Origin: Candidatus Velthaea sp.
Lineage (GTDB): Bacteria; Vulcanimicrobiota; Vulcanimicrobiia; Vulcanimicrobiales; Vulcanimicrobiaceae
Assembly (NCBI GenBank): GCA_965214935.1
Contig: CBDCCS010000023.1
Location: 1 to 26,601, forward strand
DNA length: 26,601 nt
Direction: 5' to 3'
Shown: piece after piece, positions 2,780 through 11,654 of the stretch
Layout: the number at the start of each line of letters is the position of its first letter
Position numbering within the stretch: position 1 is the first letter of the stretch
The notes under the pieces: model-generated
The model's database searches: none
Told to the model about the DNA's origin: nothing
What the model saw: only the letters and a program-made list of their open reading frames with translations
Translations under genes and position numbers: made by a program

Positions 2780-4055
2780 CTAGGCGACGGCTTCGACTAA
2801 AGCCCGTGCCGTATCTTCCGCCGTCGCCGCGGCGGCAATGTGCCGGTCTTCGCGCGTTACCAGATCGCGCAAGACGATCCGGCCCGCGGCAAGTTCATCG
2901 GTACCCATGATAAGCGCGTAACGGGCACCGTTGCGATCCGCCGTTTTGAAGTGCGCGGTGAGCTTGCGGTCGGCGAAATCCAATATACGCCGGGGCGTCG
3001 CCGAGTTTGCGAAGCGCCGCCACGATCGGCACCAGCCGAGTGCGCGACGGCGCGCCGAGCGCGATGGCTTGGAAGCCGCGCCGCGCCGGCACGGCTTCGC
3101 CCCGGGTCGCTTTCACGACCATGAGAAACCGTTCGAGCCCGAGTCCAAACCCCACCGCCGGCGTCGGGGGACCACCGAGCGATTCCACCAGTCCATCGTA
3201 CCGGCCGCCGCCGCAGACGGCGCTTTGTGCGCCGAGCGCAGCCGACGTGATCTCGAAAACGGTCCGCGTGTAGTAATCGAAGCCACGGACTAAGCGCGGG
3301 TTCACATCGTACGCAATACCGGTCGCGTCGAGATACCCCCGGATGGCCGCGAAGTGCTCGGCACACGCCGCGCACAGCGTGTCGAGAAAGGTGGGTGCCG
3401 TCGCGATGTACGGCGCGTCTTCGGGCGCCTTGGAATCGAGCAGGCGCAGCGGATTGCGATCCAGGCGGCGTTGCGAATCATCCGATAGCGCGTTGCGATG
3501 GGGCGTGAAATGCGCCAAGAGGGCGGCGCGGTACGCCGGCCGGCAGGCGTCGTCGCCGATCGTGTTGATCTGCAGCCGGGCGTCGGCGATGCCGTAGCGG
3601 GCGACCAGATTGCCCGCGACTTGCATGACCTCGACGTCGGCCTCGGGGCCGGCATAACCCAGGCATTCGACCCCAAACTGATTGGCCTGCCGATAGCGGC
3701 CGGCTTGGGGGCGCTCGTAGCGAAAAAACGGGCCGATATAAAACAACCGCAGGGCGCCCGTGGCCAGCAGCTTGTGCTGCAGAACGGCCCGTACGACGGG
3801 CGCCGTCCACTCCGGCCGTAAGGTGATGCTGCGGCCGCCTTTGTCGAGAAACGTGTACATCTCTTTTTCGACGATGTCGGTGGTTTCGCCGACGCCGCGA
3901 ACGAAGAGTTCCGTCGCCTCGAACATCGGCGTGCGAATCTCGCCGTAGCCGAAACGTCCGGCGATATCGCGCGCATGAGCTTCGAGTTCATTCCAAGCGG
4001 CCGACTCCGGCGGGTAAATGTCGTTCGTGCCGCGCGGTGCGCTCATCGGCTCCAT
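2780..4055 (-). CDS. hisS: Histidyl-tRNA synthetase, apparent frameshift near 2983
   Basis: APRGTND, TDIVEKEMY, LRPEWTA, FRYERPQAGRYRQ, LVRGFDYY, GGGRYDGL and GFGLGLER. The anticodon domain continues in ORF 2780-2983 (DFADRKLTAHFKTADRNGARYALIMG). Confidence 0.95.
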
Positions 4056-4183
4056 CGGTGGGGCAGGTACCACGCACCGCCAAGGACGCCCTCGCCGGGG
4101 AGAGCTCGATGGCGTTTGTTCGACGGTGGGGGTCAAATGAAAGGTCGAAGCATGCACGCGCCGAGGGCAAGCTACGGTCGCCG

Positions 4184-4733
4184 GTGTCAATGATTTCGCC
4201 GGTCGGCATTTGCTTCGCAACCGTGCTGCTCGCCGCGTCGCCGGCACTCGGGCTTTCGCTCCCGAACGCTCGGCTGACGCCGGGCGCGGTCGGCGCGAAC
4301 GACACCGTTTCCGTGGTTGCCGCGCAGGTCTGCGTCCGCGGCTACGCGCGGGCTGCGCGCCACCCGTACGATACGGCTTGGCGACACTACCGGACGGCCC
4401 TTTTCCGCGCCTACGGCATCCCGCATGCACGCTGGAAAGCCTATACGATCGACCACCTCGTGCCGATCGAATTAGGTGGTCGGCCGTTCGGCGTCATCCG
4501 CGGCCGCGATGGCCGCTCCACCTGGGACCTGCGCAACGTCTGGCCCGAGCCGAAGAATGACGCGCGCCGGAAGGATGCCGTCGAAAACGCGTTGCGCGCA
4601 AGCGTTTGCGCCGGCGGCTTCCGCGGCGTCCGCCCTCACACTTTCCCAGGCGCAGCATGCGATCGCGAGCGACTGGACGCGGACGCCCGTCGGCCTACCG
4701 TCTCCGGGCAGCGCATCGCCTGAATCTCGCTAA
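4184..4733 (+). CDS. Secreted HNH/His-Me-finger-like protein, apparent frameshift near 4634
   Basis: Signal peptide-like MISPVGICFATVLLAASPALG; motifs LTPGA, VC..GY, IDHLVPIELGG, NVWPE, KDAVEN and VC, then LSQAQHAIASDW in a second frame. Start GTG 4184 or ATG 4190. Confidence 0.6.
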
Positions 4734-5041: not shown

Positions 5042-7483
5042 TCATAGGCTCAGCGAGTAGGTCAGCCGAACGGTGCGCGCCTGCGACGGGTGAAAATGGT
5101 AGTCATTGACGCCTCCGCCGCCAAGTGCCGGATTGACGGACGGGTCGTTCGCCAGAGCCGGATTCGCTGCATCCGACTTCAGCCATGAGCTATAATAATA
5201 GGTCACGTCGGCTGCCGGCGAGTTCAGAATGTTGAACACATCGAGCGAGACGCTGCTGCGTCGCTTGAATTTAAACGTTGCTTGCGAATTTAGCGTTGTG
5301 GACGGGGCCGACGAAGCGTCACCTTGGGTATCGAGAAGCCGAGGACCGAAATAACGGAGGCGTAGACTTGCAGCGAAGTGCGGTTGGTCGAGCGTCGCGC
5401 CGGCGGAGATCACACCGGCCAGCGATTCGGGAACGCCCGTTCCCTCGTTGAGCGGGTCGGTCAAGAAGCGTGCTGTTGTCGTTGCCAGGTCGGCGTCGAA
5501 GGTCAGATTCTTGGTCGGCGTGTAGAAATTAGAGAGTTCGATGCCTTGACGAACGTCCGGGCCGCCAACGGACGTCGTGCCATGGTCGCCGTCGAAAATC
5601 AATTCATTCGCGACGAGTAAGCGAAAAACTGAAACGGTCGAAGTAATTCTGGTCGATGAATAGCGATAGCCCAGCTCGTAGCCGACCGCCCGCGTGAGCG
5701 GTGAATTGAACTGGACCGGCGCGCCGGTTGCGTCGAAGTTCGCGTGTGTTTGCGGATCGCTGTTGCCGATCACACCGCGTGCGTCATTGGAGTGGAAACT
5801 TGCACCGTAATCGGCATAGAACTCGTCATGCGGCGAAGCCGCATACGCTGCGGCGAACTTTGGGTTGAGTAACCCTTCGTTTGCAGCGCCGGAATTCGCC
5901 GGGTCGTACGCCGCCACCCTATAGTTATAGCGATCGTAACGCAGACCGGGAGTCAGCTTGAGCTTCGGCCCGAGTGACATTCGCGATTCCACGTAGGCGA
6001 ACTGCGAGGTATTTACCACATGATCGTTGCTTAGCGTTCCATTTTCGTACTGCTGTTGCGAGTTGGTCAAGTAAAGCCCGACAACAGGCGCGTTGTCGTT
6101 GCGTATACCGGCGCCGATGGTGGTCTCGGTGCCCGGGGTCGCGAAGCTGCGACTGGCATCAAACCCATAGTACAATCTTTTATCGACTTGCTCGCGCTGA
6201 TCGCCGCAGGTGAACGAGTATGGCGAGAGCGGAACCGAGTGTCTGGCTGCACCAGCCGGCGCCGTGTTGTTGGCGGGACAGTACGACTGGTAGCCGTTCG
6301 TACGCGGGGCGGTTCCCGTGTTCGGCACACAAGAAACGTAGGCCGCGTTGCACGTGATCGGATTCTGAGTCACGTTATAGTAGTCGTTGGCATCGAAGAA
6401 GTTGTACGTGAAGTTAGAGAACAAGTTCAGCATCGAGTTCACGCCATAGGCATTGAACTTGGTTGCTCCGTTGACGTCTGTATGCGTGAATTGGGCCGAC
6501 AACGCATAGCGGTACGTGTTACCGCCGTCGCTCGGATCCTCATAGCCGAACCGGCCGATCAAATTCTCGCCGACGGCCCGTTGCGGGATTTGGTCGGTCG
6601 AATTGAACGCGCCGTTATAGGCGATGCCGGTTACCGCCAGGCTATTGGGACCTTGCGCCCTCGAGTAACGTAAAACTCCATTGTACCGGTGATACTCGTC
6701 CGCCCGAGCGTACGAGCCGTTATCATGCGCGATCTCGGCTGCATAGAGCAGATTTCCCGCGCCCAGCTTTATCGTATCGGCAGTGAAGAAACGGTCATAA
6801 CCAAAATCTCCGACGGTAAACTCCGACGTCGGCTCGATGACGTTTCGGTAGAAGAGATTGTAACCACCGGCAACGGCAAAATCGCCCTGGTCGGCAAAGT
6901 AGGTGCCCTTCTTAAATTCGACATATCCAACGAGTTCGGGCATGAGATAGTTTATGTCCGAGTAGCCTTGACCGTGTGCATGCGAGCCTAAGTTTACCGG
7001 GATACCGTTGATATCAGCCTCTAGATTCGTGCCGTGATCGAGTTGGAAGCCGCGTAGGTAATATTGATTTGCTTTACCGCCACCGCTGTGCTGGCTGATA
7101 ATGAGCCCGGGAATGGCTTCAAGCACTTCGCCCGGCCGCAGCAGTGGGCGCGTTTCGATCTGCTCTTGACCGATCGTTCCCGTCGACGCCGACAACACTT
7201 TCCCGACAAGATTTGCCTTCCGGCCGACTGTAACGCGACCGATCTGCCGCAGCGCCCCTGGGCAGGATGTTCGGGACGCGGCCGGCGCCGACGTTGCGGC
7301 CGCCGGCGCGTTCGATACTCCGGCCGGCGCACTCGACGCGCACGGCGCCGGTTGATGCGCGTTCGATGGCGCCACGGCCGCCGGAGTCGCTTGCGCCACG
7401 ACGTTGGCGTCCTCACTCGGCGGAGCGATAAGCGCCGGCGGCAGAGCCAGCACTGCGGCCAGGACGACAGCGGAAAATACCAT
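5042..7483 (-). CDS. TonB-dependent outer-membrane receptor 1, putative metal (Ni/Co-type) transporter
   Basis: Signal peptide MVFSAVVLAAVLALP; plug motifs RPGEVLEAIPGL, QHSGGGKANQYYLRGF, DHGT, HAHGQGY and VEFKKGTY; barrel motifs PGLRYD, LNPKF and DVFNILN; terminal strand RTVRLTYSLSL. GGGGG precedes ATG 7483. Confidence 0.88.
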   Translation of the reverse strand: MVFSAVVLAAVLALPPALIAPPSEDANVVAQATPAAVAPSNAHQPAPCASSAPAGVSNAPAAATSAPAASRTSCPGALRQIGRVTVGRKANLVGKVLSASTGTIGQEQIETRPLLRPGEVLEAIPGLIISQHSGGGKANQYYLRGFQLDHGTNLEADINGIPVNLGSHAHGQGYSDINYLMPELVGYVEFKKGTYFADQGDFAVAGGYNLFYRNVIEPTSEFTVGDFGYDRFFTADTIKLGAGNLLYAAEIAHDNGSYARADEYHRYNGVLRYSRAQGPNSLAVTGIAYNGAFNSTDQIPQRAVGENLIGRFGYEDPSDGGNTYRYALSAQFTHTDVNGATKFNAYGVNSMLNLFSNFTYNFFDANDYYNVTQNPITCNAAYVSCVPNTGTAPRTNGYQSYCPANNTAPAGAARHSVPLSPYSFTCGDQREQVDKRLYYGFDASRSFATPGTETTIGAGIRNDNAPVVGLYLTNSQQQYENGTLSNDHVVNTSQFAYVESRMSLGPKLKLTPGLRYDRYNYRVAAYDPANSGAANEGLLNPKFAAAYAASPHDEFYADYGASFHSNDARGVIGNSDPQTHANFDATGAPVQFNSPLTRAVGYELGYRYSSTRITSTVSVFRLLVANELIFDGDHGTTSVGGPDVRQGIELSNFYTPTKNLTFDADLATTTARFLTDPLNEGTGVPESLAGVISAGATLDQPHFAASLRLRYFGPRLLDTQGDASSAPSTTLNSQATFKFKRRSSVSLDVFNILNSPAADVTYYYSSWLKSDAANPALANDPSVNPALGGGGVNDYHFHPSQARTVRLTYSLSL

Positions 7484-7848
7484 GTCTAACCCCCGATGTT
7501 GCGAACGATGGCTGAGCAACGACACCGTGGTTGATGCCGACATCTTCACGCGCGCTAATACATCAATGACGGTTGCCACAGCCCGACCGGCTAACCGTTA
7601 AAAGCGATAACGCTAAGGTCGCTCACCTAGATTTCGCTCTGGCTATTTGAATTCAATAATTACTAACAACGTGGTCGCGGCCAATGTTTGGGGATCGACG
7701 CTTAACTGCACGATCGCGCTAAGCGTTCGTATCGGGATTATATACCGGAAAGGTCCAATTAGAGCGTCTACATTGATTGCGTTTATCCGGTACTATGAGG
7801 AACCTGTATCGTCCGTGTGAGCGAAGCGCCGGCTTGCGCGTACGAGCT

Positions 7849-8199
7849 TTATTCCGTCCGGTTCGTTAAGCCGGCCGCAGGGCCGCCCACATGCTCGCTG
7901 GTCAGCCAATGCTCGAGGTGCGTTACGTACTCTTGACCGAACGTATCAATGAGGCACCGTACGTACGCCGCATAGCCGTCGGTTTCGCCGGCGCAAATGT
8001 GCTGTTCGAGGACGCGCCGATGAATCGCCATGTACCCTTCACGTAGGCGCAGGCCGCCATGAAGCAACTGCACAAGGAGTTCACTGGGCGAGCGTTCGGG
8101 ATGCCGTTCTAGGCGTTCGGTGAACCATTCGTCGAGTGCTCGCGGCAATCGCATCGAACGCGTCGGGCCCATCGACCCTGAGCCGCGCGCGCGCGCCAC
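7849..8199 (-). CDS. Putative ribbon-helix-helix DNA-binding protein with a His/Cys-containing C-terminal domain
   Basis: TRSMRLPRALDEWF...RSPSELLVQLLHGGL fits the RHH strand-helix-helix pattern. The GTG start overlaps the upstream TAG by 1 nt. Confidence 0.6.
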   Translation of the reverse strand: MARARGSGSMGPTRSMRLPRALDEWFTERLERHPERSPSELLVQLLHGGLRLREGYMAIHRRVLEQHICAGETDGYAAYVRCLIDTFGQEYVTHLEHWLTSEHVGGPAAGLTNRTE

Positions 8200-8444
8200 T
8201 ACCGCTGGGTCCCGGCGTCGTGCACGTGCTCGGCGGCATCATCATCGCCATGGCTATGCGTAGCCCCGTCGTCGTCGTGGTGGTCGTGATCGTGATCGCG
8301 ATGGCCGTGCGTATGCGTGTGCCGGATACCATCAAGATGTTCGTGCGTGTGCAGATGGGCCTGATTCGCAGCTTGGGTTCGGTCCTCATCGCGGTCGATG
8401 CTCATCATCTCCTTTTCGAGGCGTCCGCGCTGGGATGAATCCAT
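8199..8444 (-). CDS. Small His/Asp-rich putative metal-binding protein B
   Basis: 16 His, including HLHTHEHLDGIRHTHTHGHRDHDHDHH. Alternative starts at ATG 8408 or 8405 after AAGGAG. Confidence 0.72.
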   Translation of the reverse strand: MDSSQRGRLEKEMMSIDRDEDRTQAANQAHLHTHEHLDGIRHTHTHGHRDHDHDHHDDDGATHSHGDDDAAEHVHDAGTQR

Positions 8445-8450: not shown

Positions 8451-8525
8451 TATACGCGACGTCGGCAGTCCATGGTAGTTAAGCCATCTGGTTCTTCATG
8501 CTCATAAAGTTCGCGCTCACCGGTA

Positions 8526-8618: not shown

Positions 8619-10908
8619 TTATAAAGCCGTCGTCAGCCGCACGACGATACGCCGTCCGGCCGCCCATTGAGTCGTGTTGAATCCGTTATTGACCTTGATG
8701 AGGTACTGATGGTTAAACAAATTTTCCGCCACGACTTCAAGCCCCAGCCGGTGCGTTCGGGCATCGGAAAGGCGACCGAATGACGCGTTGACGATGAGAT
8801 GCTCCGGTAAGTTCCCAGACGATCCGTCCTGAAATGTGACGGGATACCCGGTGCCATATTCTGGTTCAAGCGTAACGTACAAGCTGTGATCGCTTGAAAA
8901 CCGATGCGTGTACGCGGCGTTGATGGCGACAGCTTGGTCGTGATCTTCAGGATTGAGGGTCAGATCGGACACGGCGTCGGGCGCAAACAAAAAAGTGCTG
9001 CCCGATATGCCGCCCGCAAGCGACTCGGAAAGCGTCGTTGAAAGATAGAAACTGTCGCGAACGGCATCACTTTGGAGGCGAAACTCAAGTCCATGTGCAT
9101 GGCCGATCGAGTTGTTGAAAACGGCGAAGAGTGGCGTGTTCAGGAGTTGTGTCGTGTCGAGCACGTTGGTAACGTTACGTTGCCAGGCGTTTGCATAGAC
9201 TGATAAGCCGGGGTGGTACGTATGCGCGATGCCGAACTCGACATAACTATCGTGTTCGGGCTTGAGATCGTAGGGCGGGTTCGCATCGGCCGTCGTTTGG
9301 GTCACGATGGCATCGCGCCGCGTATCTTCGAGCGACGGAGCGGCGTACAGGCGCCCGAAGTACGCGTGAAAAACCGTTGCACGATCGAACGAGTAATTGA
9401 CTTCAGCGCGCGGACTGAGCTGTCCGCCGGCGACAAAGCCGGTCGAATGATCGAAGCGCAAACCGTAGTTCACTGCAACGTGCTGACCCAACGCCCAACG
9501 GTCCCTGCAAATACGCACCGAAGAGCGTTCCCGCTTGCGCAACGTCGGATGTCTGACGGCCGGCGTTATTCGCTAATTCGATGAAGCCCGCATCGCTATA
9601 ATTCTCGCGCGATACGTCGATACCGGCCTTGAAGGCATGAATGTCGCTGGATCGACTTACCGATGTGCGCAGGCCAAGGTTGTTGACGCGTTGATCTTGC
9701 TGTAGGCCGTTCTGCAACAACACGCCGCCATTGCCGTCAGGTAGTGTTGCCAGCACGTCGCGCGCGATATCGCCGTCGTACGCTACGCGTGACGAGCGTA
9801 GCCAGGGCACCACCTGCACCGATCCTAGCCCATCGTCGGAGATATGGGTAAACGACGCACTCACGAAGCGGTCGTACTCGCGTTGCACGTCGTCGGTTCC
9901 CGGCGCTGAGACGAACGCATTGTTCGGGTCGTACGGATTCGTATTGATCGGGATTTGATATGCGGCGAACTGGTTTGACAGATCGAACGCGACCTGATTG
10001 CCGCGACCGGCGGGCGCCACCACGCGCAAGAACTGGTCGCTTAAACTCGATTGGTCGTGGGTCAACTCGCTGTCCGGAGTCGGCGCATCGAGACCGCGAT
10101 TCGAGCGCACCTCATTAGCCGAGAACGAGATCCCGGCCGAACCGACATGAAAGCTTTCGTTCAAGCGTCCTTCGGCAGTACCGTAGCTGCCCGCCCCCAG
10201 CGTGAAACTGCCGACGGGCGGCCCGCTGAGCACCGGCGGTCGCGAGATGATGTTGACGACGGCGCCCATGCGTTGTCCACCGTATTCGGCCGGAAACGCG
10301 CCGGTAAAGACTTCGACGGCTTGAACGTTGCGCGGATCGACAAGCTCCGAAAAATTCGAGCTCGTGCTTTGCGGCAACGGAGCACCGTCGAGTTCATAAG
10401 TTAGTCCGTGGTAGCCGTGCGCGACCGGTTCGTCATATGAAAAGCGCACGACGCCGGGAACGCTCTGCACGAGCGCATTGAGCGAATCGCCGCGCGGCAA
10501 AGTCGCGATACTGCCCGGCAAGATCGCGTTCTCCGAGACAGGCGTGCCGCGAACCCCACGGGTACCCCCGCTCACTTGACCGATCGTTCTGAGCGCCGCG
10601 TCGGCAGTCAAGGCGACGGTTGTGACGGCACCCGTAGCGACGTCGACGTCGGCCACGGCCGGCGACCCGCCGACGTTGGTGTGCAGCGAATAGTGGCCGA
10701 ACGGGACGCGCGCGAAAAGAAAGTGGCCGTTGCGATCGGTGGTCACGGCTTGGGCGAATCGATCGCCGTAAAGGTGCACGACGGTTTGAGCGACGCCGTG
10801 CCCAGCGCGGGCCACGGTTCCAGATATGGTGCCGACGGAATCGGCAAGCGCCGGTGCCGCACACGCGACAACGATCGCGCATGCCGCCGGCATGACGAAG
10901 CGAAACAT
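8619..10908 (-). CDS. TonB-dependent receptor 2 with N-terminal carboxypeptidase-regulatory-like domain, apparent frameshift near 9504
   Basis: Signal peptide; GTISGTV...TDRNGHFLF...PFGHY domain; plug VPGVV, HGYHGLTYELDG and VEVFTGAFPAEYG; AYLQ|DRWAL...NYGLRFD; LSPR, LKPE, DHDQ and ENLFN; terminal strand RRIVVRLTTAL. Confidence 0.87.
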
Positions 10909-10911
10909 AAT

Positions 10912-10970
10912 CCCTCACAAAGAACGATAGTTAAACAGCGAAAACCGAGAAACGCTGTCCGTTCGGAGGG
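10912..10970 (-). promoter_or_regulatory. Predicted mRNA hairpin sequestering the Shine-Dalgarno of TonB receptor 2
   Basis: mRNA pairings CCCUC/GAGGG, GAACG/CGUUC and GACAGCG/CGCUGUU. The 5' arm lies in the Ala-Pro-Pro codons of the upstream ORF. Confidence 0.65.
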
Positions 10971-11506
10971 GCGCGTCCGAAACGTCGCGCGGTACGCGCG
11001 ACCCCACGACGCAGTGGGCAAACATCGGAAGGAAAGAGCCGAGTCGCGCGCTCGCGGCGTTCGAGCCGTTCGAGCCAGTCGCGCAACAAATCCGCCACGA
11101 ACAGCGCGAACAGCGCGGTACTCCGGCGTAGCGCATAGGCTAGGAGAATCGCGAGCGCCGCAAGCACGAGCGTCGGCAAGCCAATTTCGATTCCGTTGCC
11201 CTCGATCGCTTCGATGCCATAATACAAGCTCGCCGCGACGAAAAAGACAATGGGTGCACCGGGAATGATCTGCCGCGCGCGCGCGGCCGCGATAGTTCCC
11301 GTCGTGGTCGTGGTGCTGCCGGTGAGAAACGCGCGGACGATCAGCATCGCGATGGCGACTACGCCGCCGACGGTTGCCGCCACGAGCGTCTCGCTCGCAC
11401 CACCGCCGAAGGCGTGGTCGTCACCAAAGCGGACGAAGTGCGTCGCAATGGCAACGCAGCTGCCACACGGAATAGCGAAAGCGAACCGGCGAAACGCACC
11501 CCGCAT
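10931..11506 (-). CDS. Multi-pass membrane leader protein with CxxC and C-terminal RAPP motif (putative arrest-peptide regulator)
   Basis: GGAG precedes ATG 11506; 191 aa; about four hydrophobic segments; CGSC and H..H near the N-terminus; RRFGRAPP 10 codons before the stop; ends 22 nt upstream of the receptor ATG. Confidence 0.72.
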   Translation of the reverse strand: MRGAFRRFAFAIPCGSCVAIATHFVRFGDDHAFGGGASETLVAATVGGVVAIAMLIVRAFLTGSTTTTTGTIAAARARQIIPGAPIVFFVAASLYYGIEAIEGNGIEIGLPTLVLAALAILLAYALRRSTALFALFVADLLRDWLERLERRERATRLFPSDVCPLRRGVARTARRFGRAPPNGQRFSVFAV

Positions 11507-11654
11507 GTGCGTGCTCCATTCGCGGTTCGTTGCAGGGTGAACTGCCGCCGGGCCGGGGAATCGCTCGCAGACGCCGAGCCGATGCAACGCCGGATGCGAA
11601 CGCGACGGCGCAAGACACCATGACACGCCGGGCTCGGCGGGGTACGATAGCGGC

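Follow-up and report, generated by a model that had tools for sequence, protein, structure and literature searches.

Why should a small membrane protein that carries, close to its end, a motif known to halt ribosomes stand directly ahead of a TonB-dependent receptor? This question is raised by contig CBDCCS010000023.1 of a Candidatus Velthaea sp. (Vulcanimicrobiota), of which a stretch of 26,601 nucleotides (nt; hereafter the window) was analysed. An initial annotation had read a 191-residue open reading frame (ORF) on the minus strand as a leader whose arrest motif, RAPP, stalls the ribosome and thereby frees the receptor's ribosome-binding site from a hairpin, with a CxxC near the N-terminus as a possible metal site. 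From a comparison with related loci, the leader appears to be a cis-acting, metal-sensing arrest leader with stall-coupled control of the gene behind it. With the metal and the direction of the response left open, we put the probability of this at about 0.7.

At the level of sequence comparison, a conserved R-[AP]-P-P motif, a stem that pairs with the Shine–Dalgarno (SD) sequence, four nearly invariant His and Glu residues, a fixed spacing and metal-handling genes downstream are established. Stall-coupled control of the SD sequence is very probable on this evidence. Once such control is granted, sensing of metal by the His/Glu set is highly likely too, by a slightly smaller measure.

The leader and its conserved residues

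The features of the leader are as follows.

10931..11506, minus strand: leader ORF, 191 amino acids, four predicted membrane helices and an Arg-rich tail ending in RAPP (sequence, AlphaFold2, hydropathy and charge, coding score)
11514..11517, minus strand: GGAG, likely ribosome-binding site of the leader (sequence)
11456..11467, minus strand: CGSC, residues 14-17, within helix 1, present and not conserved (sequence, comparison with relatives)
11414..11440, minus strand: His23-x7-His31, end of helix 1 and the next loop, candidate metal ligands (conservation)
11201..11212, minus strand: Glu99-x2-Glu102, end of helix 3, candidate metal ligands (conservation)
10964..10975, minus strand: RAPP codons, putative arrest site, of which the Ala-Pro codons double as anti-SD sequence (conservation, bias for CCT)

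The leader occupies the only frame with a positive coding score, and its coordinates had been given correctly. RAPP is found at residues 178-181 (codons CGC GCC CCT CCG at 10975-10964) with ten residues remaining to the stop, and the CGSC (residues 14-17) and N-terminal His residues (23 and 31) of the initial annotation are present. The leader has the outline of a RAPP-like arrest peptide, i.e. a small membrane protein, first in its operon, with the motif near its C-terminus. RAPP is depleted in the long ORFs of the same genome (3 seen, 20.6 expected), as against 48 seen and 37.4 expected for AAPP.

The AlphaFold2 model of the leader has a mean predicted local distance difference test (pLDDT) score of 86.9, with a low-confidence tail, and places helices at residues 2-27, 35-63, 71-80, 84-102 and 110-156. 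Four main peaks in the averaged hydropathy agree with the approximately four-helix architecture proposed at the outset. Positive charge is concentrated in the tail, at the N-terminus and in the loop 61-80, and negative charge at 26-40 and 96-105; by the positive-inside rule, the His23/His31 and Glu99/Glu102 patches are both predicted to lie on the periplasmic face and the tail in the cytoplasm. Foldseek returned no match to the model at E<=0.001 and solved folds gave no clear match. The best likeness was to four-helix permease domains of ATP-binding cassette (ABC) transporters of the FtsX/MacB/BceB type (Z 8.2, root-mean-square deviation 4.6, 144 residues aligned), which is below the tool's meaningful level for helical bundles.

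Searches with the leader protein gave 37 close matches, and its profile recovered 276 clusters at 50% identity. Within the Vulcanimicrobiota the profile matches 153 of 206 genomes of the window's own family and 0 of 94 in the other families of the phylum, a tally that includes six unpublished genomes. Atlas and named records agree on this phylum, with Vulcanimicrobiaceae among the names. In the Atlas there are three unnamed clusters, mostly of Vulcanimicrobiota, and a weak DUF6412 row at 0.79; the sensor part alone matches none of the named Atlas clusters. The protein has no Pfam match at E<=1 and no NCBIfam family fits it. As the initial annotation had suspected, it stands apart from DUF2946: PF11162 matches none of 19 family members and none of five genomes, while 2 of 14 controls match. 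We found no published description of the family in the literature searched (arrest peptides, RAPP/RPPP, DUF2946/CruR, copper/TonB, Eremiobacter/Vulcanimicrobi). These results support an uncatalogued four-helix membrane family, distinct from DUF2946 by sequence. No longer fused forms were found, which is weak evidence, and one member that was searched gave no plasmid match.

In an alignment of 142 sequences (28% mean column identity), His31, Glu99, Arg178, Pro180 and Pro181 are each present in every sequence, His23 in 141 (with one gap) and Glu102 in 141 (with one Asp). The second residue of the motif is Pro in 106 sequences (RPPP) and Ala in 36 (RAPP), so that the form in the window is the minority one. 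Two further positions are less constant: His104 (113 of 142) is Asn in the window leader and His38 (90 of 142) is Ser. In the window clade, Asn replaces His104 in 28 of 37 members, and conserved Asp/Glu residues are added at 29, 30 and 107.

The conservation expected for RAPP, CxxC and His has thus held for the His pair and, in the broader form R-[AP]-P-P, for the motif, and has failed for the CxxC. The latter occurs at residues 14-17 in one of 37 close relatives, namely the window protein itself. A 68% identical paralogue in the same genome, which precedes a paralogous receptor, has no Cys there, and across the 142 sequences the columns hold L/F, G, L and L/P. No Cys column exceeds 15% and, apart from the start, no Met column exceeds 25%; CxxxC occurs in 4 of 128 family members. 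By these counts the CxxC is not supported as the metal sensor and is rejected as such; two His and two Glu residues are conserved and are the candidates instead.

The distance from Glu102 to the Arg of the motif is 72-77 residues in 140 of 142 sequences, while the sequence of the linker is not itself conserved. Given the length of the ribosome exit tunnel, this fixed spacing would put helix 4 just outside the ribosome at arrest. In 141 of 142 sequences a small residue comes before the invariant His23 (residues 19-23 of the leader, window 11438-11452). If helix 1 were cleaved there, His23 would become an N-terminal His, such as that of CopC; helix packing explains the pattern equally well.

A predicted stem over the receptor's Shine–Dalgarno sequence

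The leader and receptor are separated by 22 nt; the receptor starts at an ATG at 10908 and has an SD-like GAGGG at 10916-10912. The two sides of the stem are as follows.

10953..10970, minus strand: 5′ arm of the nested stem (folding)
10912..10940, minus strand: 3′ arms (10940-10934 and 10926-10922) and the receptor SD (10916-10912) (sequence, folding)

The nested stem drawn in the initial annotation is the predicted minimum-energy structure of this part of the window. We collected 71 distinct loci and analysed 70 (one unpublished locus was omitted; four starts were set by hand). The gap from leader to next gene is 18-68 nt in 69 of them. The complementarity noted between the Pro codons and the receptor SD recurs: in 47 loci the pairing partner of the SD lies in the motif codons, and in 56 it lies in the first 21 nt counted from the motif. 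Codon choice at the motif is unusual as well. CCT is the third codon of the motif in 51 of 70 loci and in 16 of 18 close metagenomic relatives (31 were fetched, the rest being cut, duplicated or without a called start), compared with 3.3% of the Pro codons of the genome, 80 of 1566 (5%) in downstream genes and 38 of 486 (8%) elsewhere in leaders.

The covariation that had been expected of homologous loci was also found. In 64 of 70 cases the 5′ arm pairs better with the SD region of its own locus than, on average, with those of the other loci, although its own is the very best in only nine. Synonymous recoding weakens the pairing in 67 of 70 loci, 52 of these at p<=0.05 (window p=0.015). In an alignment of 41 of the 70 loci, picked to share one register, 72% of the cells of a nine-pair helix are paired and six of the nine pairs show changes on both sides; its covariation score was reached by 0 of 500 shuffles and every slid register scored lower.

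Folding energies are consistent with a switch. Opening the initiation region costs a median of 11.0-11.2 kcal/mol, vs 6.7-7.5 kcal/mol at 85 ordinary starts. To mask a stalled ribosome we assumed a footprint length. The ribosome was placed with Pro codons in the P and A sites, a site that follows the description in PMC12992588. With this footprint masked, the median cost drops to 7.1-7.7 kcal/mol, and a drop of at least 3 kcal/mol is seen in 38-41 of 70 loci vs 7-9 of the 85 ordinary starts. Judged from these sequences, the stem is under selection across the relatives.

Several points weigh against this account. The stability of the window stem is near chance, with z-scores against shuffles of -0.26 (101 nt), -1.10 (131 nt), -1.49 (71 nt) and -2.29 (63 nt); as the value varies so much with stretch length, the window sequence alone proves little, and it is the comparison across relatives that lifts the stem above chance. 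The 70 loci are themselves related, many being of one genus, and the counts overstate their independence. The nine-pair helix was named from the data themselves, its rows are kin, and RNAalifold returned no consensus structure for a sequence-based alignment of 41 loci. Pro codons are inherently complementary to an SD, and the rare codon could instead have been retained because it is decoded slowly. When 30 nt of upstream sequence are included, the window copy opens at 6.5-7.1 kcal/mol, as an ordinary gene does, and at 5.0-6.9 kcal/mol when masked (a drop of 0.2-1.5); folded from the motif onward, it does show the switch (10.4 to 5.0 and 9.9 to 6.9 kcal/mol). Several close relatives (L018, L137-L146) show no drop on masking. 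For the paralogue the cost is high with either way of folding (14.8-19.7 kcal/mol, falling to about 5); its stem is much stronger than that of the window and reaches the start codon. Finally, the 142 leader sequences were gathered by a profile that already contains the invariant residues.

Because of this last point, loci chosen by their receptor were examined as a check. There were 33, comprising a third locus of the same genome, eight named loci and 24 of 28 others (four unpublished loci were omitted). An RxPP-ending ORF lies immediately upstream of the receptor in 30 of them. Of the other three, the first has such an ORF a gene farther upstream and ahead of CusF, the second breaks off where its contig ends and retains RAPP codons, and the third has none. 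The leader family accounts for 24 of the 30 upstream ORFs, and all 24, read by eye, show H-x7-H and E-x2-E. The other six have different N-terminal domains (Met/Cys-rich, Cys-containing, or of a His/Glu family ending in NRPPP).

We propose that the leader chain would be inserted in the inner membrane during its synthesis, and that its His23/His31 and Glu99/Glu102 would face the periplasm. The ribosome would pause with the pair of Pro codons in the P and A sites, thereby covering the anti-SD arm; this would leave the receptor SD free and allow the receptor to be made. Binding of metal, most likely copper, by the His/Glu set would make the helices pack or insert, and this pull on the chain would end the pause. 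The stem would then refold and synthesis of the receptor would fall. The receptor would most likely be switched on when the metal is scarce.

A search of Rfam gave two chance-level rows only and no riboswitch, and a promoter and terminator scan found no intrinsic terminator between leader and receptor and no minus-strand promoter match. In many relatives (L004, L006, L025, L039, L049, L059, L068 and many g34 loci), the leader start has no SD and follows a -10-like hexamer at a distance of 6-9 nt, which suggests leaderless mRNAs for many RPPP members; the window leader, unlike these, has an SD. A near-palindromic element containing TACGAC is found about 50 nt upstream of the leader in 36 of 70 loci.

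Downstream genes and the metal probably sensed

As the initial annotation had supposed, the leader is typically adjacent to a TonB-dependent receptor: 58 of 70 downstream regions match the receptor subfamily of the window. The other targets include a CopC-CopD protein fused to a signal peptidase (S26) domain and followed by YcnI (three scanned: L073, L077, L081), an unnamed secreted protein followed by CopC (two loci), SCO, a cytochrome c protein and a thioredoxin-like gene. Behind one receptor there is a multicopper oxidase, and CusF lies between leader and receptor in a genome of the same genus (G002) and in three close metagenomic loci. Copper-linked targets sit on several branches of a quick tree of the leaders. 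Receptors of other genera that are orthologous to that of the window have Met/Cys-rich leaders ending in RAPP, one of them before CusF. This gene context narrows the earlier list of nickel, cobalt, copper and zinc, and the sensed metal is probably copper. An unannotated secreted protein of about 300 residues with an N-terminal His-Val-Val-Cys follows the leader in four loci (L048:8290-9150, L057:8103-9011, L030, L031); standing before CopC in two loci, it is a candidate copper-uptake component.

The receptor and a small ORF behind it are the next features of the window.

8619..10908, minus strand: TonB-dependent receptor with carboxypeptidase-regulatory-like domain, plug and barrel (PF13620 below its cut-off, PF07715, PF00593)
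8199..8444, minus strand: His-rich small ORF (81 amino acids) after the receptor, possible metal-binding peptide (no Pfam match; similar peptides lie by the paralogous locus)

In the window the receptor is split over two frames (9403-10908 and 8619-9542). The surplus base responsible, at 9503, is lacking both in a 99.5% identical genome (G001), where the receptor is intact at 762 residues, and in four of four sequencing runs; the frameshift is most likely an assembly error in an intact gene of 762 residues. In view of the intact copy and the four runs, a pseudogene is rejected. A second surplus base relative to all four runs is found at 8510. A gmhA-like gene (1701-2337), an accB-like gene (2432-2779) and hisS (2895-4430) also look frameshifted, and this points to indel errors in the assembly. 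His167, His656 and His703 are present in 34 of 34 aligned receptors, and no Cys or Met is invariant. Comparison with solved structures gave weak matches to FepA/Cir barrels only, with no clue to the substrate. A second TonB receptor of another subfamily (5042-7579, minus strand) follows the first receptor and the His-rich ORF, with a possible link to nickel, cobalt or zinc. The paralogous leader-receptor pair (G000:C22:798792-801674, L123), of which the leader takes up 801099-801674, lies in a metal island of the same genome; its neighbours there are His-rich peptides, another receptor, a repressor of CsoR/RcnR type, and DUF411, ArsP, ArsR and BlaI/M56 genes.

We consider it likely that metal releases the stall. 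In the opposite case the same stall and stem would be strengthened by metal and would induce the downstream genes for resistance or buffering. This is a sub-case of the arrest-leader reading that takes up a little under a third of it, and is unlikely overall. CusF and multicopper oxidase, usually tolerance proteins, are among the targets and RPPP is the majority motif form, both of which speak for induction. However, 58 of 70 loci lead to a receptor of an importer class, and the CopC/CopD, YcnI and SCO targets are consistent with copper acquisition. The precedents divide in the same way. CutF, with a PPP motif, relies on the same kind of RNA switch and is described as copper-induced (PMC9973294, bioRxiv 2025.02.05.636593), whereas copper is reported to shut off CruR, which precedes a TonB receptor (PMC9426467).

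A sub-case of similar weight, again taking rather less than a third of the arrest-leader reading and improbable on the whole, is that nickel, cobalt or zinc is sensed, at least by the window copy. His/Glu sets lacking Cys or Met suit nickel, cobalt, zinc or manganese, and the receptor with its invariant His residues is similar in this respect. The exchange of His104 for Asn and the added Asp/Glu positions of the window clade point the same way. So do the His-rich peptides and second receptors behind both copies in the genome, the repressor and the genes of arsenic type that accompany the paralogue, the urease accessory genes near one close relative and an Nramp gene after one CopC/D operon. 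His-only CutF-like proteins are moreover described as adjoining HupE/UreJ (PMC9973294). On the other side, CusF comes right after the leader in G002 and in three metagenomic loci of the closest clade, copper genes turn up in separate parts of the leader tree, and it is Met/Cys-rich leaders that stand in for the window-type leader before orthologous receptors.

A third possibility, which we rate as quite unlikely, is that the leader serves the receptor chiefly as a functional partner in the inner membrane, i.e. as a metal acceptor or permease, and that the motif and stem only couple or pace translation without sensing. The well-folded four-helix bundle with its invariant polar residues exceeds many leaders, and there is the weak permease likeness mentioned above, although it falls below the meaningful level. 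Against such a role, the leader is always first in its operon and heads different operons, its place ahead of the same receptor can be taken by unrelated N-terminal domains while the RxPP end is kept, and the Glu-to-motif spacing is fixed while the linker varies. That the leader monitors membrane insertion (Sec or YidC activity) like ApdA, ApdP or MifM, without sensing metal, is very unlikely: RAPP peptides were first described in that role, and translocon pulling is reported to release them (PMC10987492), but no sec or yidC gene is among the downstream genes examined (58 of 70 receptors, the scanned remainder neither), and the invariant His/Glu residues and copper-related targets would be left unexplained.

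The replacement of leaders has further aspects. Orthologous receptors stand behind unrelated Met/Cys-rich or Cys-containing membrane leaders that end in RAPP (L097, L102, L085 at 2808-3530, L087, L088, L092); three types of replacement leader were scanned and had no Pfam match. The sensor domain looks exchangeable ahead of the same receptor. A second four-helix His/Glu family, ending in NRPPP, precedes a related receptor (G000:C3:182296-185472, L124; also L128, L162-L170) and is found in 9 of 101 genomes of the phylum. It aligns with the window leader family only from helix 3 to the tail (hhalign probability 58.6%, E 9.5e-5). In two genomes, leaders of the NRPPP and window types face each other about 6 kb apart. 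Two further ORFs of the Velthaea genome, ending in RAPP or RGPP, precede secreted-looking proteins (G000:C18 ending at 203363 and G000:C21 ending at 71639, both plus strand), and a crude scan found five such leaders in this genome.

A bolder proposal combines these results. A Cys-free candidate His/Glu metal site may form between helices 1 and 3 on the ribosome, this folding step being the switch, and one lineage may have spread the module over copper-uptake genes (receptor, CusF, CopC/D, YcnI, SCO), swapped sensor domains before the same receptor and moved between RAPP and RPPP within one family. This is tentative, at a little short of even odds. If true, the shifts between RAPP and RPPP would be a natural test of stalling that is resistant or sensitive to elongation factor P (EF-P).

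Comparison with known arrest leaders

By analogy, the leader would resemble CutF in what happens on the RNA and CruR in its target, and it lies outside DUF2946. CruR (Bp2923, DUF2946/PF11162) precedes bfrG in Bordetella pertussis (PMC9426467), and its arrest is reported with Pro codons in the P and A sites (PMC12992588). The window leader shares with it a C-terminal RAPP, a TonB-dependent receptor downstream, a fixed distance from metal site to motif and a probable link to copper. CruR is described as an exported protein of 145 residues with CxxC 45 residues before RAPP, a gap of 162 bp and Rho-dependent termination (PMC9426467, PMC12992588). The window leader family differs in its four helices, in the placing of Glu102 (72-77 residues) and His23 (about 153 residues) before the motif, in gaps of 18-68 nt and in an SD-masking stem; the CxxC of the window lies over 160 residues before RAPP, vs about 45 in CruR.

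CutF precedes cutO in Rhodobacter capsulatus, and is described with a Pro-rich C-terminal stall that melts a stem over the next SD and with sensing on the periplasmic side during export, as we propose here (PMC9973294, bioRxiv 10.1101/2025.02.05.636593). By the same accounts it has a cleaved signal peptide, a CxxxC and fewer than 150 residues, and copper induces the stall. The window leader, in contrast to CutF-like proteins, has 191 residues and four hydrophobic helices, of which the first may be cleaved off, in a family where CxxxC is rare; its anti-SD, unlike that of CutF, lies within the motif codons themselves. As the survey of CutF-like proteins is described as dropping those above 150 residues (PMC9973294), the leader family, at about 175-190 residues, would have escaped it.

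Fujiwara et al. describe small RAPP/RGPP proteins as leaders before TonB receptors, YcnI, copper chaperones and thioredoxins (PMC12992588). Nearly all their leaders of the TonB class have a signal sequence, unlike the window leader. SLIV_18480 of Streptomyces lividans is described there with four membrane segments, a predicted His3-Met copper site and its Arg at 273. Four-helix RAPP peptides with predicted copper sites being known from Streptomyces, a membrane leader is not new in kind, and ours is set apart from SLIV_18480 by description only (Arg at 178 vs 273, His/Glu vs His/Met ligands). We sought actinobacterial four-helix leaders by way of YcnI and reached a Rubrobacter operon, which is headed by a two-component system and has no leader. 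RPPP does not occur in the main text or the supplements searched for that survey (9 of 10 readable). The RAPP members of the leader family may be among its anonymous counts.

SecM, ApdA and ApdP are similar in that a stalled ribosome disrupts a stem over a downstream SD and in having a RAPP-like motif; they are described as controlling sec or yidC genes and sensing translocation, with no metal site (PMC10987492). The same source lists RPPP as a RAPP-like pattern, and RPPP is reported as the strongest XPPP staller without EF-P (PMC4176338). How metal outside the cytoplasm leads to release or prolongation of a stall is described as open even for CruR and CutF (PMC12992588).

Beside these systems, the leader family offers a compact, confidently modelled candidate sensor in which four residues are named, the spacing is fixed and the RNA switch is simple, and this makes the pulling-force idea directly testable. 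It would extend the class to RPPP and to proteins above 150 residues, which two published surveys would largely miss. For a widespread, unannotated TonB receptor of the Vulcanimicrobiaceae, it points to metal, probably copper, as the class of substrate.

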